A stretch of 63,878 nt of DNA, filler included, from Stramenopiles sp. TOSAG23-2 (Eukaryota), in the NCBI GenBank assembly GCA_900128395.1. It is 16 parts of 16 records of this genome, joined end to end, with 100 filler letters (N's around TTAATTAATTAA, not from the genome) between each part and the next. Parts side by side here need not be neighbours in the genome. Positions count along the whole stretch, not along the records: positions 4,201 to 8,299 come from LT650994.1; 15 more parts are not named here. One strand, given 5' to 3'. Position 1 is the first letter of the stretch. Each line of letters opens with the position of its first letter. Below the pieces are notes generated by a model. That model did no database searches and was not told the DNA's origin. It saw only the letters and a program-made list of their open reading frames with translations. The position numbers and the translations under genes are program-made. Shown in pieces: positions 4,101 through 60,535 of this stretch.

Positions 4101-4200
4101 NNNNNNNNNNNNNNNNNNNNNNNNNNNNNNNNNNNNNNNNNNNNTTAATTAATTAANNNNNNNNNNNNNNNNNNNNNNNNNNNNNNNNNNNNNNNNNNNN
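4101..4200. other. Artificial contig spacer N44-TTAATTAATTAA-N44. First of 15; the others start at 8300, 12496, 16692, 20883, 25071, 29258, 33440, 37619, 41797, 45972, 50146, 54318, 58490 and 62662.
   Basis: Identical 100-nt block with stop codons in all six frames. Lengths of the intervening segments decrease steadily (4099, 4096, 4096, 4091 ... 4072). Confidence 0.99.
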
Positions 4201-5165
4201 TGTACATCAGTAATATTATTATTATCTAGGTCCAATGTCTTTAATGTATTGTTTGCTTTCAATGCTTCACCAATACTTTGTACATCAGTAATATTGTTAT
4301 TACTTAGGGACAAGTACGTTAATGTATTGTTTGCTTTCAATGCTTCACCAATACTTTGTACATCAGTAATATTGTTATTACTTAGGGACAAGTACGTTAA
4401 TGTATTGTTTGCTTTCAATGCTTCACCAATACTTTGTACATCAGTAATATTGTTATTACTTAGGGACAAGTACGTTAATGTATTGTTTGCTTTCAATGCT
4501 TCACCAATACTTTGTACATCAGTAATATTATTATTATCTAGGTCCAATCTCGTTAATGTATTGTTTGATCGTAGACCGTCACCAATACTTTGTACATTAA
4601 CAATATTATTATTAGTTAGGCGCAATGTTTTTAATTTAGTGTTTGTTTTTAACAATTTAGCAATACTTTGTACATGAATAATCTTGTTGTTATCTAGGTC
4701 CAAGTATGTCAATATATTATTTGCTGTCAACGCGTAACCTATATTTGGTATATCCTCATCATGGATGGTTTTTCCATCCAAAATTACTTTACTGGCCTGA
4801 AAATTGACTCCATATTTTTTTGTCAATACAACTCTAAAATAATACCAACGCAAGGGATCATACGCAAGAAAGGTTTTGCATGTTTTCGCAAACATATTTA
4901 TCATTGCAAGTATATCATCATCAAAATATGCTATAAGACCTGGTGTTGTAGCAGTGCCGATACATATTTGTAATAAACCAGGTAAATGTTCAAAATGTGT
5001 TTTTCTGGTTGCTATGGTTGTTGTTCTTTTTTTTGTTGTTGTCGTCGTCGTCGGCGTTGTTGTTGTTGGTGTCTGGTTATCGTTCGTAACTAAAGATGGA
5101 TTTGTATTTATAGTGATATGAGTTCTCGTAGGTGTATGGTTGTCATCAGTAAGTAGAAATGCCAT
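4201..5165 (-). CDS. Leucine-rich repeat protein (RI/NLRC3-like, 26-aa repeats), 3'-truncated by the contig end
   Basis: Repeat NNNITDVQSIGEALKANNTLTYLSLS; Thr-rich N-terminus. Confidence 0.9.
4243..4554 (-). repeat. Coding minisatellite with a 78-nt unit; three identical copies plus partly diverged flanking copies
   Basis: AATGTATTGTTTGCTTTCAATGCTTCACC starts at 4243, 4321, 4399 and 4477. Confidence 0.95.
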
Positions 5166-6239
5166 TTTATTTACACTGATATTAGTTTATATATATCGAT
5201 ATATATATGATTGTGTCTTTTCTTGTATCTTTAAGTATTTATGTGGTGCTATGTATCTTTTAGAATATATATATGTATGTATAATATCTGTGTAGACTTG
5301 TATATATTAGGTACCAGTCTAGTTTAATATCATTGGAGAATATATATACTAGCTCGAAAACTCACACAACAACACTTTCTTCGAAAAAATATAATAATAA
5401 TACCTGGTAATAGTCTAATAAATATATTATTATTTATTTAGAACCTGAAAACCGATTAATTTGTGTATTTGATAGGTAATATAGTGTGTAAGTACACTAA
5501 AATTGTATCGAACCCGAGGGTTACAATGGGAATAGCAGGGACGAGATACAGAAGACATTAGTTGGGGTGTTTGATAGGTAATATAGGGTGTAAGTATACT
5601 AACCTTGTACCGAACGCGAGGTTTACAATCGGAATAGCATGGATGAGATACAGAAGAAATTCAAGGAAGACGGTAAACATGTAAATGCTGTATAGTAAAT
5701 AATCATAGTAAAAAAAAAAACGTTTTTTATTGTTTATATGATGTGAATATTGTATCAGTGAGCTAATATCGTATATATTAATCACGTGACAATAAGTTTG
5801 GGTGATAAATGTTTTATTATGATATGCGGTCTATTTTAAGTATAGCTGCAGGCATCGTGCTGTTCCACGATTATTGTATTAATTTGGAATATAAATTGTG
5901 ATATAATCCCATATATATATTCTTTTATTATGTGTATCAATAAAGATGTTTTATAATAAAGACAAGTATTTTGTGTATAATTGTATATAAATATTTATCT
6001 ATGTATGTTTATATATTTGTATCAATAAAGATGTTTTATAATAAAGACAAGTATTTTGTGTATATATGTATATAAATATTTATCTCTGTATCTTTATATA
6101 TATATTGTGTTGTATAGTAGTACTATTGTATGATAACAGGACAGAGTATATAAACGGAAGAAGCCTTTTGATGTTCAATCGATGCTGTGGCCATCGTATT
6201 CTACAGTTGACGGGCACAAAGAAAAGGCGTAAACACTGA

Positions 6240-6690
6240 TTATCATTAATTTCCGCAATTTTTTTATTTGGATTTACACGAAAAAAAGCGTGCGAGTTCA
6301 ATTTCAAATACCATTTGTAACGACCATATTAACGTAGTTTTAAGGGTGCTATCGGTTTAGGCAAGACTTAAGGTGAATTCTCCTAAAAACCCTACTATAC
6401 TTGATAGGGTTTGCAACCGATGCAGGCTCCTAGCTCTATATTACTATTCCACACCTTAAGTATGGGGAAAAGCGTAAAAAGGAATTATCAGGAATTTCCG
6501 CAATTTTTTCATTTGGATTTACACGAAAAAAAGCGTGCGAATTCAATTTGAAATACTATTTTGTAACGACCATATCAGAGGTTTAAGGGAAAAATAGGTT
6601 TATGGAAGAGACTTAGGTGAATTCTCACAAAAACACTACTGCACTACTATACTTGATAGGGTTTGCAACCGAGGCAGGCTAATAGCTCTA
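6240..6690. repeat. Imperfect tandem repeat, about 245-nt unit x2
   Basis: ATTTCCGCAATTTTTT..ATTTGGATTTACACGAAAAAAAGCGTGCGA and CTATACTTGATAGGGTTTGCAACCGA each occur twice. Confidence 0.85.
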
Positions 6691-6890
6691 TATGAATATT
6701 GAGACGACTCACAGTGTAGCAGTATATATAGGTTATTTTTTTATAATATTAATATAAACAGTTATTATACATCAATATTACATACAAACGTGAAAGGAAA
6801 TATACTAATTATATAAAATAAAAAAACGAAAAAGTATTTAATACATAAGAAAATTTATATATTGTTGAAAAAAAGAAAGATATATTATTT

Positions 6891-6957
6891 ATGGCACGAA
6901 CAAAGCAAACCGCCAGGAATCCAATTGGCTAGACGTATCCGTGGGGAGCGTGCTTAA
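6891..6957 (+). pseudogene. H3: Internally deleted histone H3 fragment (N-terminal 9 codons joined out of frame to the C-terminal 12 codons)
   Basis: ATG GCA CGA ACA AAG CAA ACC GCC AGG (MARTKQTAR), one extra A, then ATC CAA TTG GCT AGA CGT ATC CGT GGG GAG CGT GCT TAA (IQLARRIRGERA*). Both parts match canonical H3 termini exactly. Confidence 0.92.
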
Positions 6958-7749
6958 CCAATGGAAGGATGCTTTGGTCGTGTTTGCATGTTTCAAAAAA
7001 TTCAAAAGAAAAATTGACCTTGTTGAAACTGTAAACCTATATATATATATATATCTTATGCTTGCGTGTTTATCAACGAATTATTCTTGAACGGGTTGTA
7101 TACTCTATTAATCAATAACTTGATTCGGTATTTAATTGTCAGTAGGTTATTCTTGAACGGGTTCTATACTTTATTAATCGATAATTTGATTATAGATTTA
7201 TTTCGCAATTAAATATATGTAATTCTTGAGCGAAATACTTTATTAATCGATAACAGGAAAAGGCATATCAATGAATTATTCCATTATCCTTGAACGAGTT
7301 CTATAGTTCAAATAGTTTATGATGCTAAAATATAAAATCATCGCCATTTCTGTCACATTTTTGTAATGATTTTTTTGAAATGGTTGTCACAAGCATAAAA
7401 ATCAAATATCGAGTATTCGTCACATGGTATAACAAGTGAAGAGTAAATCAATTATTTATGTAATAACAAACGTAATGGGCATATGATAGAATACGTAGTA
7501 TATTCGTGGACACTTTATTTTCATTAGGTCGTGGTGGAGGAGACATGTATTGGTGGTAATATTTGGTTGAATGGTATTGATTTTTATGAATGAATGCAAT
7601 ATTTGTATTCACGTGGTAATTATATGTAATATAATACGTTGTATGTGTTTGTATTGTATGTAATACAAAGTATATATATATATATATTGTTTGTAAATTT
7701 ATATTATTATTTGTAAAAAGAGAACTAGTTTGTTGAAAAACAGAGTTTG

Positions 7750-8299
7750 TCTTGGATGAGGAGACGGTAATGGTGCTGTGTGCCTGTTAACCATGAGCAA
7801 CGTTGTAGGTACACGCAATGGTATGGCCATGTAAATTCAATACATAGAATGTTCCACTAATAGATTGTTTTTGTCGGAACATTTAGGGCCATATAACAGA
7901 CATAATATATAAACCGTTTTAGCACTTAGCACGGTGGTAGCAGAAGAAAAACCTTAACGATACAAAAATTCATTATTTCGAGTTAGTTTAATTTGAAATG
8001 GCATACGTATATATATAAATATTACATATGTGCACTTCTGTATCGAACGTTGCATCAATTACGCTGTCCACAAACGTAGTAATCTTATCACGCTTAGCAT
8101 CATCATGCAAATAATATCTTATTGCGGCGACATGGAGAAACGACCACAATATTAAATGACAGTGCAACAATCCACTACCCGTTGCCTCAATAACCCCGAC
8201 AAATCCTCTAGGTGTTCCCCATAATCCGCGGTTGACACGATGATGGCTGAATATTTTAATAAATACAGTGTTTACAACCATAAAAGTCACTTTTACCAA
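7750..8299 (-). mobile_element. Degenerate Helitron-type Rep (HUH endonuclease) fragment, truncated at the contig end
   Basis: GLWGTPRGFVGVIEATGSGLLHCHLILW resembles Helitron Rep motif 2 (ExQxRGxLHxHxLxW). A downstream broken frame gives LNLHGHTIAC, resembling the HxHxxxC motif. Confidence 0.7.
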
Positions 8300-8835
8300 N
8301 NNNNNNNNNNNNNNNNNNNNNNNNNNNNNNNNNNNNNNNNNNNTTAATTAATTAANNNNNNNNNNNNNNNNNNNNNNNNNNNNNNNNNNNNNNNNNNNNA
8401 ACACTCTCCTGTTGCTCCGCGTGTGTCGTGTGTATTAATATAAAAATACTTTTTATTTAAATTATGACATATAAATTATGATATTGTACTTGTTATGATA
8501 TACGAACATTCGTATAAAAATTTTCTCTTACTCATGTATTATATATATTTATATGAATATTATTTATACATGCATATGTGTAGAATAATTATCATATATC
8601 GATATTATTATATTATATTTTTAAATAAAATTAATTAAAGTTAAAAGAGAAATTTAATATTACGTACTCGTATTAATAATATACGAACCCGTATTTTTTT
8701 CAGATCTAGCGCTCTTCAGCTCTTTATTTTTTTTTACGTACGTGGTAGAATTATTGTCCATAAAATGTTCGTCTCGGTACATTTTAAATGTACACGGTAT
8801 GTAATTGTCAGCCTCTTTCTCAAGTATCATAGCCA

Positions 8836-9771
8836 TCAAGGTTTGTCTTCCTCACTTGTACTTGTATTATTTTCATCCCATTTTGTTTCTTTTGTCACTG
8901 GATTATGTAGATAAAATTGCTGATGCTCCGGTGAAAAATGCTTTGTCCATCTTCGTTTTTTCTCAGCAACTGCTGCTTCTTTCACTAGATTCTGAAAAAT
9001 ATCGGCATCTTCCTCTTCCTCTTCTTCTTCTTCTTTTTCAGCAACATCTTCCTGGGTAGGCGTAGTATTATCCCCTTCTTTCTCTACACCATCATCGTCA
9101 CTTGCCCATGTGGTTTCATTTGTTTCTTCGTCATGTATATAATATTTCTGATGGACAACGCTAAAATGTCTAGTTTTTTTCGATTTCTTGTGTTTCATCG
9201 TTTCTGCCCCTGATCCCTTTTCATTCGTAGCCATTCCACTATTTCCTGCTTCTGTATCCCAATATGTTTCCCCAGTTACATGATTCACAAAATAATACGT
9301 CTTGTGTTTCTCACTAAAATACCGCCTTGTATTCCTTGAATCTTTATCAGATAAATTCTTTGATTTAGAATTTAATGATACGGTTGCACGTCGTTTACTA
9401 CTATTGCTATCATATTTTTTCTTATTACTATTATTTTTACCATTGCTGATTTCTAATATGTTTAAATCAAGTCGTTTTCTACCGTTTTTATCATTATTAT
9501 TATTTAATGCTGGTGAAAACGATACTCGACGAGCAACTTTTCTTGTTGTTGTTGTTGTTGATGATGCTGCTGCTGATGTTTTGTTAAATTGATTTTGATG
9601 GTGCATTTTTTTTGCAAAGCACAATGCATTCATGATATATTTTAAACGTTTTGTTGATACAGTTTCTTGTAAACACATTAAATCATCTTCAATTTTTGTA
9701 ATGTCATCTTTATGAAAGTTATCTTCATCATAGATTATTCCATAATGCATTCTCACCAGCATTTGGATCAT
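8836..9771 (-). CDS. Protein with three WW-like domains; true start uncertain, possibly 9811
   Basis: YYFVNHVTGETYWD, YYIHDEETNETTWA and WTKHFS..FYLHNPVTKETKWD. Confidence 0.75.
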   Translation of the reverse strand: MIQMLVRMHYGIIYDEDNFHKDDITKIEDDLMCLQETVSTKRLKYIMNALCFAKKMHHQNQFNKTSAAASSTTTTTRKVARRVSFSPALNNNNDKNGRKRLDLNILEISNGKNNSNKKKYDSNSSKRRATVSLNSKSKNLSDKDSRNTRRYFSEKHKTYYFVNHVTGETYWDTEAGNSGMATNEKGSGAETMKHKKSKKTRHFSVVHQKYYIHDEETNETTWASDDDGVEKEGDNTTPTQEDVAEKEEEEEEEEDADIFQNLVKEAAVAEKKRRWTKHFSPEHQQFYLHNPVTKETKWDENNTSTSEEDKP

Positions 9772-10522
9772 GATATGCTAAATCTTCGATGGATACTGGA
9801 CTATGTTCCATATTATAATCCCAATGTATATATATATATATATGAGTTACAAATATAGATATCTTCACATACAATATACTATTAAAACTAATAATATTTA
9901 ATACATAAAAGATGAGACGAATTGAAATACAATCTTTCCACTTTTACACATGTACTAATGCACTTCATGCATATGTACATAAGAAATCTTCTATATACTA
10001 TATTAAATAAGATTATATTAATTTAATATTCATATAAATGTGTGTACATTTAATATATCGTTTATTGTTGGATGATCTTTTGGATAGTTTAGAGAGAGAG
10101 ATCCTCCATAGAAATACCATTGAAATATGGATTTGATCAGGAAATATGGATTTGTTCAGCTATACAGCTACCACCAATATTCACGTGTGTCGTGTGTGCT
10201 GGTGTGCAATTATGTATTTACACAAAATCTAAATCTTAAATCTTATATTAGAGATAAAACCTTAACAACCTGGATCTTCTCATCTTCTCTCATCGTGATG
10301 TTGTAAATAGCCGTGCCAACTTCAACATTGGATTGCCTTCTTTTCTATTAACGACAAAATATATATTTTCAAAACACAAAGTCACCGAACTTATATATAT
10401 GGCCCATGATATCTTTAGTATAAATAGATTAAAAAAAAAAACAGACATATCAACATTAAAAAACAAGAAATAGATAACCATGATGACGCAAATAATAATG
10501 TACATACTACTACATTGAAGCC

Positions 10523-20144: not shown

Positions 20145-21516
20145 CTTTTTCTTCAGAAGATGATATTATTATTAACAACAATAAAAATAATAATAATAAT
20201 AATAACAATTCCCCACGGTTGATTCTTATTTTTTGGGGGGGGGACAAAACTTCNNNNNNNNNNNNNNNNNNNNNNNNNNNNNNNNNNNNNNNNNNNNNNN
20301 NNNNNNNNNNNNNNNNNNNNNNNNNNNNNNNNNNNNNGGGGGGGGGGGGGGACAAAATTTCTCTCACGTTATATGAGTAAAAAATGTATTGTATTTGTGT
20401 TCAGTACTTGGTGTTTTGATTCGTCGTTCACATATCCCGCTTTTTTGAAGGATACATACACTATCTATCTCTCTGTCTATTATGCACTTATATGTAAGTA
20501 TATAGTAATTAAAATTGGATATACTATTTGTTGTATAATTTAGAATAATAATAGAAGAAAGTTGGTAACGTCTTTCTCTTTCTTCTTCTGTGTGTCTGTG
20601 TGGCGGCTTTTTCAAACAAGTGAGGCTGCGGTAGGTGGTAGTCTGGTATGGGCCTCGTAGTCTAGCTGGATAGGCACGTAGCACTAGCTCGAGCTAGTAT
20701 AGCTATAGGCTTGGAAGCTGATAGCTATAATATGCAGCAGCTATGCATTTTCCAATGATGTGTATAGTGTTATTATAATTGAGTGCTATGTACCACTTTA
20801 ACTTGTATGTATATAGAAAAATAGATTTATATACTTCTTCTACTTCTCCGTATACAAAATCATATTCGTAAATAAACATACANNNNNNNNNNNNNNNNNN
20901 NNNNNNNNNNNNNNNNNNNNNNNNNNTTAATTAATTAANNNNNNNNNNNNNNNNNNNNNNNNNNNNNNNNNNNNNNNNNNNNAATATATATATATGTTTC
21001 TCTCTGTATCTGTCTGTAAATGTAATACACGAACTTGTTATAATTAAAATAAATGTAAAAAAATATATCTTTTTTTCAGATAAGACAGAGATTATAGTGT
21101 GTGTGGATGCCTCGGCTATAGTGTGAGCGTAGCATTGTGATTCATAATTAGCATGGACACAACATTAAAATTAAAAATGTGGTGAATTCCTTAAAAGCAC
21201 TTTAACTTCTCTTGTAATTGTATTGCTATGCGGTGAATAGCATTGTTATAGGCATTTATCCAAAAAATTTGAGGATACTGTAAGGATAAAAAAAAGATTT
21301 TGATTTGGAAGGTAAAAACTGTAAAGGACGCATATGCTTGCCTGGCTTGTTAGACGACTACAAAAAAATCTTATACGTTTTAAACCAACTCGGCATTATG
21401 ATTTACCAATTTTTCATTTGTTTGTTTCGATTGATATAAATATCCCCACGCTCACTACTTAATTTTCTGCAGGTTTGTTGGCATTGATTCACAAGTACAT
21501 TATACATCAATGGACT

Positions 21517-59140: not shown

Positions 59141-59464
59141 GTCTTCTTTTCTCTTTGTTTTTTAAAATGTTTTGTATATCTATATCTATATATGAAGATG
59201 ACGCGACGACTTATATTGACAACTATAACTTAAACATCTTTATTTCTTAACTTGAAAAATTAAATTATTTTAATCTCTAATAATTATATATATATTATTA
59301 TCCGAAAAAAATACGCATGTGCGCATCATCTTCTCGTAATATATAATAAATAAAAAAAAAAAAAAAAATGTTCAAGCCATAGTGCCTTTCGTTTACTGTA
59401 TCAGGTACGCCAGTACGCACGTACGCACGTATATAGAAATAACAACAATATAATAGAAAACATA

Positions 59465-60535
59465 TTGGACATTATGAACATGTTTCCTAATAGAAAGTTT
59501 CCTTTATTTCGATTCTCTACTAGTTATCGTTTCTTTAGTAACAGTAGTTGTAGAACGCAACGTACATTAAAAAAATCTATATATTTTAGTGGCATAAGTT
59601 TGCATAATGGGAAACAAGTTAATTTAAGTATTCATCCGTCAACACATGTAAATAATAGTACAGGAATACTTTTTCAAACTCCAAACGGCATGATACCAGC
59701 ATCATACGAGAATGTATCTAGCACTAATTTTTGCACAACGCTTTGCGGTTTTAAAACGAGTAATGAGGCAGGTTCATTATCAAATATATATTTTGTACAC
59801 ACGGTTGAACATCTTCTAGCTGCATTTTATATTTGTAACATTCAAAATGCAATTGTTGAAATAGATGGAGAAGAGTTACCGATATTAGATGGAAGTTCTC
59901 AACCTTATTGTGATGCATTTGAAGGCAATGTTGCCCCAATACAAAATAACAAAGCCTTGAAAACACTAAAAATTTTAAAACCAATTAAAGTTCAATCTGG
60001 TGATAGTCATGCAACATTTTTCCCTAACAATGTGGAGAACGAAAATGATAATACGAATAACAATATATCATCACGTGGTGGTAGTAGTGGTACTTTAAGT
60101 ATATCTGTAGATGTTGATTTTGAACCATTTTCATTACCACGTGATCAAATAGAAGTAAATGATTTAGAATTTTTAAAAGAAATAAGTTCCGCACGTACAT
60201 TTACATTTGAACATGTTATTTCAAAATTAAAAGAAGATGGATTAATTAAAGGCGGTAGTATGGAAAATGCAATTGTATATGATAAAAATGGTATTCCTTT
60301 GAATAAGGAACCATTGCGTTTTGAAAATGAATTTTCAAGGCATAAAATTTTAGATTGTATTGGTGATTTGTCTTTATTAGGCAATGATAGGAAATCCATT
60401 GATAAAATTGATGGTAGATATGTTGTATATAAACCTGGTCATACTATCAATAATAAAATGGTAAACAAATTGATGAAAATATTAGAAGAAGAAGAACAGG
60501 AATTGATTGAAAATAGATCAGTTGTTATAGTGTGA
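59465..60535 (+). CDS. lpxC: UDP-3-O-acyl-N-acetylglucosamine deacetylase with a putative mitochondrial presequence; probable start ATG at 59474 or 59480
   Basis: QRTL, GISLHNG, TVEHLLAA, ELPILDGSS, SARTF, RHKILDCIGDL and KPGH. Confidence 0.95.
   Translation: MDIMNMFPNRKFPLFRFSTSYRFFSNSSCRTQRTLKKSIYFSGISLHNGKQVNLSIHPSTHVNNSTGILFQTPNGMIPASYENVSSTNFCTTLCGFKTSNEAGSLSNIYFVHTVEHLLAAFYICNIQNAIVEIDGEELPILDGSSQPYCDAFEGNVAPIQNNKALKTLKILKPIKVQSGDSHATFFPNNVENENDNTNNNISSRGGSSGTLSISVDVDFEPFSLPRDQIEVNDLEFLKEISSARTFTFEHVISKLKEDGLIKGGSMENAIVYDKNGIPLNKEPLRFENEFSRHKILDCIGDLSLLGNDRKSIDKIDGRYVVYKPGHTINNKMVNKLMKILEEEEQELIENRSVVIV

Follow-up and report, generated by a model that had tools for sequence, protein, structure and literature searches.

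The locus

The window (the whole stretch of DNA that was analysed, 63,878 bases) is a chain of contigs of about 4.1 kb in order of descending length, joined by 15 spacers that consist of runs of N around TTAATTAATTAA, so that contigs lying side by side in the window are not neighbours in the genome. Each spacer is 100 nt long (4101-4200, 8300-8399 and 13 more places), TTAATTAATTAA being a six-frame stop linker, and there is in addition a plain N gap at 20254-20337. Other contigs of the window carry long uninterrupted frames for ordinary eukaryotic proteins (CDC48, a Kelch-repeat protein, LpxC), and the assembly as a whole is AT-rich and eukaryote-like. The LpxC frame (UDP-3-O-acyl-GlcNAc deacetylase; 59354-60535, plus strand; Pfam E 3e-74) is full-length, and the contig that holds it could be read either as carrying a eukaryotic lipid-A-pathway gene or as a bacterial contig in the bin.

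The object of this study is a 67-nt remnant of a histone H3 gene, called here the stub, on the contig at 4201-8299. The features of this contig that matter for the argument are given below, with the comparison sequences that bear on each of them in brackets: L001 is a metagenome contig, and X1, X3, X4 and X20 are public sequencing runs, all introduced in the following sections.

4201-5186, minus strand: frame with LRR repeats, cut by the left end of the contig (LRR_4, E 4e-19)
6091-6890, plus strand: native H3 5' flank (promoter region and leader), including part of a 245-nt repeat pair (L001 1-841; X20 record 8)
6891-6917, plus strand: H3 start codon and the codons for ARTKQTAR, tail residues 1-8 (identical to L001 813-839)
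6918-6919, plus strand: deletion joint (X3, X4 and X20 contigs and the L001 homology all end at 6919)
6919-6957, plus strand: last 12 H3 codons (IQLARRIRGERA) and TAA, shifted by one base relative to the frame of the start (in X3 and X4 in frame behind AKRVTIMPSD and AKRVTIMPKD, respectively)
6891-6932, plus strand: residual frame from the ATG, 13 residues and TAG, predicted only (ORF 6849-6932)
6958-7418, plus strand: native H3 3' flank, with 66-nt repeats at 7081-7203 (X3 records 10 and 11; X4 records 16 and 18; X1 record 1)
7419-7505, no strand assigned: stretch whose links to both neighbours are unsupported by any compared run (X1, X3 and X4 contigs)
7506-7563, minus strand: start of an unnamed gene ("gene X"), of which the first 13 codons (MSPPPRPNENKVS) and some 18 nt of leader remain (L001 1680-1734)
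7988-8299, minus strand: frame resembling a Helitron Rep protein, plausibly a relic, truncated where the contig ends (Pfam match to Helitron_like_N at E 0.0044, which is under the cut-off; Atlas score 0.96)

Tandem or near-tandem repeats with units of 102, 85, about 245 and 66 nt lie around the H3 locus (5455-5658, 5929-6098, 6223-6700 and 7081-7203). A search of the whole stub contig against Rfam gave no match at E up to 1, and hence no match to the histone 3' stem-loop.

Two ends of an H3 gene in 67 nucleotides

The stub begins at 6891-6917 with ATG GCA CGA ACA AAG CAA ACC GCC AGG, which encodes MARTKQTAR. After a single further base, the A at 6918, positions 6919-6957 read ATC CAA TTG GCT AGA CGT ATC CGT GGG GAG CGT GCT TAA, that is, IQLARRIRGERA and a stop codon. 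Direct reading of 6891-6957 thus bears out the sequence-only reading, in which the first 9 and the last 12 codons of H3 were said to be fused with one extra base between them. It had also been stated that the amino acids show no decay; this holds, and the nucleotides show none either when they are compared with the coding parts of X20, X4 and X3. Each half of the stub occurs once in the 63,878-base window when up to 3 mismatches are allowed, and the number expected from 100 shuffles is 0, so that the two halves are not there by chance. A six-frame scan of the window for H3 motifs found no other piece of H3. The G+C content of the stub is 52%, against 28-31% in its flanks.

Translated from its ATG, the stub gives a 13-residue peptide that ends at a TAG at 6930-6932, within an ORF that runs from 6849 to 6932; the product proposed from the sequence alone, a peptide of 13 residues without K9, therefore stands as far as the frame is concerned. 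Beyond R8 this frame reads NPIG. What is left of the H3 N-terminal tail is the initiator methionine and ARTKQTAR, and the histone fold, with its three helices and about 70 residues, is missing altogether. The stub is thus derived from H3 but is not itself an H3 (the histone fold of Pfam PF00125 is absent and the N-terminal tail is incomplete).

Comparison with public sequencing runs

Public runs were screened for positions 6700-7200 by means of 51 sampled 31-mers, and 21 runs are listed. Two of them, X1 and X2 ("organism A", samples S1 and S2 of one study), contain 1.00 of the sampled words each; both are small runs (16-21 million letters of contigs) and both are flagged as possible sources. 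Seventeen DNA runs, mostly marine metagenomes of other studies, contain 0.22-0.43 of the words, and one further run contains none. The polyA metatranscriptome X20 contains 0.06, a share that is uninformative on habitat or on expression level; DNA can occur in an RNA library.

The contigs of X1, X3, X4 and X20 were aligned to 6560-8290, and the loose ends of the run contigs were read for 30 letters each. These are Logan contigs and not raw reads, and Logan contigs drop rare variants. The three non-source runs of this set comprise a marine metagenome, "organism B" and the polyA metatranscriptome (X20). The fused joint is bridged in one of the four compared runs, namely X1, whose record 1 (754 nt, word depth 7) matches 6560-7311 throughout, with neither a difference nor a gap. 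None of the listed X1 contigs and loose ends breaks at 6919 or enters an intact H3.

In all three non-source runs, normal H3 codons adjoin the same flanks exactly at 6919. On the 5' side, X20 record 8 matches 6848-6919 with 0 other letters (the leader at 6848-6890, found here in a polyA RNA library, has 0 differences) and continues for 79 letters behind 6919 which, counting the AA at 6918-6919, translate as (K)STGGKAPRK; X4 record 14 matches 6885-6919 and continues for 177 letters. On the 3' side, X3 record 10 matches 6919-7146, with AKRVTIMPSD in frame in the 81 letters that precede 6919, and its coding part is identical to the stub, two differences lying further on at 7041 and 7138; X4 record 15 matches 6919-6963 with 0 other letters and has AKRVTIMPKD in frame in the 250 letters before 6919. 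The 3' flank is continued by X3 records 10 and 11, which together cover 6919-7418 with 6 other letters, and by X4 records 16 and 18, which cover 6958-7417. The gaps in cover (X3 and X4 at 6560-6850, X1 at 7546-8007) prove nothing by themselves. Among the listed runs the deleted allele appears in the source study only, and the other 18 runs with part of the stretch contain at most 0.43 of the words.

The relatives hold several H3 copies with identical last codons, as can be seen from the residues before IQLARR (...MPSD in X3, ...MPKD in X4). The agreement between two X4 contigs before 6919 is only 0.9, and one X4 contig departs from the common 3' flank after 7016.

A further comparison comes from L001, the one metagenome contig that was found by an exact scan with a 29-mer of the stub start (the corresponding scan of metagenome contigs with a 26-mer from the stop and 3'-UTR gave 0 matches, and a scan of viral contigs with the two H3 halves gave 0 matches for each). 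Positions 6091-6919 of the window and 1-841 of L001 are 96.9% identical over 841 columns, which means that 829 nt of 5' flank are common to both, and the likeness ends at 6919. Past the joint, L001 reads AAA TCA ACG ..., normal H3 tail codons, and in X20, X4 and L001 alike the 5' leader and start are continued by H3 codons 9-19. L001 itself holds at 813-875 a second and different truncation of the same H3, with a TAA after codon 20 followed by unrelated sequence. A donor-like site at this point (...AAA CA|GTAAGT) was considered as the beginning of an intron and rejected, there being no H3 exon motif in the 10.9 kb of L001 and a TAA following at once; the same motif scan found no further H3 piece in this contig. 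The likeness between L001 842-1000 and the 3' flank in the window is at chance level only.

Nature of the joint

The alignments that come from the two sides both include base 6919 (A), so that the two ends overlap by 1 nt, which serves as the second base of the K9 codon on one side and as the first base of the Ile codon on the other; the "extra base" at 6918 is then the first base of the K9 codon. The canonical H3 gene has 136 codons and is intron-less. The simplest reading would be that an ordinary H3 gene lost about 344 nt from its interior, with a frameshift as a result, where 344 is the difference between 411 and 67 and presumes a canonical intron-less parent of 136 codons. As such a loss is not a multiple of three, the C-terminal codons come to lie out of frame.

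The proposal that the stub is a recent deletion derivative of H3 fits these data well, since its flanks adjoin normal H3 codons in X20, X4, X3 and L001 and the stub and the wild forms do not differ by a single substitution, which points to an event of little or no evolutionary age. The accompanying suggestion of an ATCCA microhomology at the junction has to be given up: the parental K-S-T codons read AAA TCA ACG in L001 and X20, and not AAA TCC A as had been supposed. Two other views of the joint were also discarded. A 3-nt ATC microhomology leaves one A more than is observed and needs a second loss of 1 nt, so that the 1-nt overlap is simpler. A splice-like excision does not fit the ends of the deleted stretch, which starts with AA or AT and ends with AT or TA and does not have the form GT...AG.

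We think that the 67-nt stub is probably a very young unprocessed pseudogene that arose by a real deletion, private to its lineage. The lesion that disables it, relative to a parent of presumed length, is the loss of everything from within K9 to the Ile of IQLARR, with a frameshift and the TAG at 6930-6932. The flanks on both sides are native and common to wild contigs (on the 5' side with L001 at 96.9% and, for the leader, with X20; on the 3' side with X3 and X4 up to 7418). A processed pseudogene (retrocopy) was rejected on the same ground, both flanks being the gene's own, and there is no A-tract after the stop. In its native promoter, leader and 3' flank, in its frameshift and early stop, and in the existence of non-deleted sister or orthologous copies, the stub resembles the unprocessed pseudogenes that arise by internal deletion in multi-copy histone families. 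It differs from the usual representatives of this class in being very clean (exactly the first 9 and the last 12 codons, with no substitution) and in being seen so far in the source runs only.

The course of events may have been as follows. One member of a small, ordinary H3 gene family, in its native place and with its own promoter, leader and 3' flank, would have lost its interior in one direct deletion, with one breakpoint within the K9 codon and the other where the Ile codon of ...D-IQLARRIRGERA begins. The ends would have been joined at the single shared base, presumably by end-joining repair or replication slippage. The remaining frame of 13 residues, devoid of the histone fold, would do nothing, and the cell would rely on its other H3 copies; the loss of one copy was presumably tolerable, as the relatives hold several. 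The deletion would be private to the sequenced cell lineage, that is, to X1 and very probably X2.

Could the joint be an amplification artefact?

The most serious objection to a real deletion is that the joint could have been made in vitro, by a strand-switch during whole-genome amplification or as a library chimera, the genome of the cell containing an intact H3. Several observations speak in this sense. The joint is present only in the runs flagged as possible sources (shown for X1, inferred for X2), and all 3 independent runs that were compared contain only non-deleted forms. The source runs have the small size expected of single-cell data, and the same contig has other unsupported joints between 7418 and 7506. 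Finally, the complete lack of sequence decay also fits an event without any evolutionary age.

Against this, the form of the joint would be atypical for an amplification chimera, since it is direct, connects ends less than 10 kb apart and has an overlap of 1 nt. According to the chimera counts given by Lasken and Stockwell 2007 (PMC1855051), 406 of 475 amplification chimeras were inverted, and direct joins of points less than 10 kb apart made up 11 of the 475, 90.9% of these having at least 2 bp of complementarity. The stub does resemble the chimeras formed by multiple displacement amplification (MDA) in that work inasmuch as it joins two nearby points and is private to small, seemingly single-cell data; it departs from them in being direct and not inverted, and in its overlap of 1 nt, to be compared with the 2-21 nt given there. 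Inverted orientation and an overlap of at least 2 bp are typical and not strict features of MDA chimeras, so their absence lowers the likelihood of this explanation to a limited extent.

A chimera is, moreover, normally a minority form beside the true sequence, whereas the joint is the only path in the X1 contigs, where the contig is unbranched at this point and none enters an intact H3 (an intact form of low depth in X1 could be hidden in contigs). The joint also appears to be present under two sample codes. X2, which has another sample code in the same study, contains 51 of the 51 sampled 31-mers of 6700-7200, and the chance that at least one of these 51 words is specific to the joint is 0.97 under random sampling; its joint is inferred in this way from the word share and not from aligned contigs. 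In X1 the depth at 7546-8007 is zero and 7419-7505 is present in another version, from which it follows that the window contig was not built from X1 alone, and hence that the runs of at least two samples appear to carry the joint. It is possible that X1 and X2 are aliquots of a single amplified DNA, and they would then not be independent. A misjoin in a 31-mer graph can be excluded, as the two sides share only 1 nt; this overlap being far below a 31-mer, the words across the junction must exist in reads.

Two further points call for some reserve. A full parent gene with both of its flanks on one molecule was not recovered, and the contigs on the 5' side (X20, X4 record 14) could in principle come from a truncated copy similar to that in L001. 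In addition, the joints 7418/7419 and 7505/7506, unsupported by the compared runs, lower the trust that can be placed in this stretch of the assembly. Taking both sides together, we consider an origin in vitro unlikely, though it deserves to be kept in mind beside the private deletion that we favour.

Is the stub carried by a mobile element?

Beyond 7418, and relative to all four compared runs, the contig is a mosaic. X4 record 18 departs from the window past 7417, and X3 record 11 comes to its end at 7418; for X1 record 5, 10 differences are listed within 7419-7475, and it is unlike the window after 7505; X4 record 19 matches only 7451-7505; and X4 record 20 and X20 record 9 join the window no earlier than 7506/7507. 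Every compared run thus leaves the window at the two joints 7418/7419 and 7505/7506, which are private to the stub contig. Wild contigs do contain the H3 3' flank as far as 7418 and, as a separate piece, the stretch 7506-7949.

This has consequences for the Helitron relic that had been reported near the stub. A frame of 103 codons resembling a Helitron Rep protein does lie 1,031 nt downstream of the stub on the same contig, and its language-model neighbours (score 0.96) are clusters in which 21-40% of the members have Helitron_like_N. It is therefore plausible that the frame at 7988-8299 is a Helitron relic. The Pfam match to Helitron_like_N itself (E 0.0044, 17.7 bits) remains below the cut-off of 28.9 bits, and the contig path from 7418 to 7506 that connects the frame to the stub is supported in none of the four compared runs, so that the presence of the frame stands and its proximity to the stub in the genome does not gain support.

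The further suggestion was that the stub is Helitron-borne. More broadly, H3, its flanks and gene X could all lie inside a Helitron or another mobile element, the stub being one internally deleted copy, or else the two H3 ends could have been stitched together during capture. The Rep-like frame on the same contig is one argument for such a view, and L001 furnishes others. In L001 the H3 5' region lies 92 nt from the end of gene X, a frame of 256 codons at 962-1732 on the minus strand (7506-7563 of the window is 87% identical to L001 1680-1734), and about 5.6 kb beyond gene X there is a frame with a PIF1-like helicase domain (E 3.3e-10), the second of two large frames, of 858 and 830 codons, at 4501-9807 on the minus strand. 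The H3 5' flank and start, gene X and the helicase frame thus follow one another in L001 with the same relative order and orientation, and L001 holds its own, different truncation of the same H3. Parts of the region are also repeated (the diverged 7419-7505 in X1, several variants of the flank in X4). An arrangement of 5' flank, H3, 3' flank, gene X and mobile-element genes that had been eroded differently in each copy would fit both contigs.

Gene X adds a little to this. Its full form of 256 codons has no Pfam match, and its language-model neighbours are hypothetical proteins, mostly of phages and bacteria, with a recognition value of 2022, below the mark of 2300; in a cluster of lower rank (score 0.93), 43% of the members are AEP-like, mostly from giant viruses. 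A leaning of gene X towards viruses would be a weak lead at this recognition value.

Other results stand against carriage by a mobile element. Helitron ends would be recognised by a 5' TC, by a 3' hairpin followed by CTRR, and by insertion at A|T; a crude scan of 4201-8299 on both strands for 3' ends (hairpin, CTRR and T, with perfect stems of at least 6) found 0, the mean in shuffled sequence being 0.2. This is a weak negative, and the connecting path is, as stated above, supported by none of the four runs. In L001, Pfam found no Rep domain in the frames, and Helitron_like_N is absent there even at E up to 1; at the protein level, no likeness was found between the Rep-like relic and L001. No second copy of the contig's sequence exists elsewhere in the window, and a stitching of the ends during capture is unnecessary, both flanks being the gene's own.

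The case is similar to known captures of gene fragments by Helitrons in that a fragment of a host gene lies about 1 kb from a Rep-like relic and that L001 has a second truncated H3 copy in the vicinity of a PIF1-like helicase frame. It differs from them in that the H3 fragment sits between the gene's own flanks and in that the scan revealed no ends of an element. Nothing specific to this case appeared among the literature listed by our searches on Helitron capture of H3. On the whole, we find it quite improbable that the stub is mobile-element cargo, and such carriage would leave its identity as an H3-derived remnant unchanged.

A function for the remnant?

One may finally ask whether the stub is a functional mini-gene, in which the promoter still present would drive a peptide of 13 residues from the H3 tail, or an RNA, that acts as a decoy for the readers or writers of the histone tail. 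Promoter region and leader are both intact, this leader is also found in a contig of a polyA RNA library (X20 record 8), and the second stub, in L001, likewise retains promoter and tail. This single RNA-library contig on the leader is, however, of the non-deleted form, and DNA can be its source as noted above. The residues that follow R8 (NPIG) are an accident of the frameshift, K9 is lost, and none of the listed runs from other studies contains the allele. The two stubs, moreover, break at different points, as random decay would give. We can lend hardly any credence to a functional mini-gene.

A bolder version would have both stubs (of 13 residues here and of 20 residues in L001) as cargo of mobile elements that express H3-tail peptides or RNAs and so blunt the host's silencing by way of H3K4 and H3K9. 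It is suggested by the position of both stubs beside genes that resemble those of mobile elements, namely the Rep-like relic, the PIF1-like helicase and the virus-leaning gene X, and it strikes us as extremely improbable. Mimics of histone tails are reportedly found in viruses, for example influenza NS1 and SARS-CoV-2 ORF8. The likeness is that a short ARTK-type H3-tail sequence exists outside a nucleosomal histone. The viral motifs are part of folded, conserved proteins whose binding has been shown, while the stub offers an accidental frame of 13 residues. Our literature searches on H3-tail mimics in transposable elements and on internally deleted H3 pseudogenes listed nothing specific to this case.

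Implications

We do not wish to overstate the importance of the stub, whose biological weight is small: it is one more dead copy of a histone family, or else an artefact of amplification. It also carries a caution, in that structural oddities in this assembly need checks at the level of the reads before they are interpreted, the window being made of short contigs from small data sets and the stub contig having at least three joints absent from wild contigs. Should the deletion prove real, it would document that an uncultured marine eukaryote of AT-rich composition has very recently lost a gene through end joining at minimal homology, in a lineage in which several near-identical copies of H3 exist.
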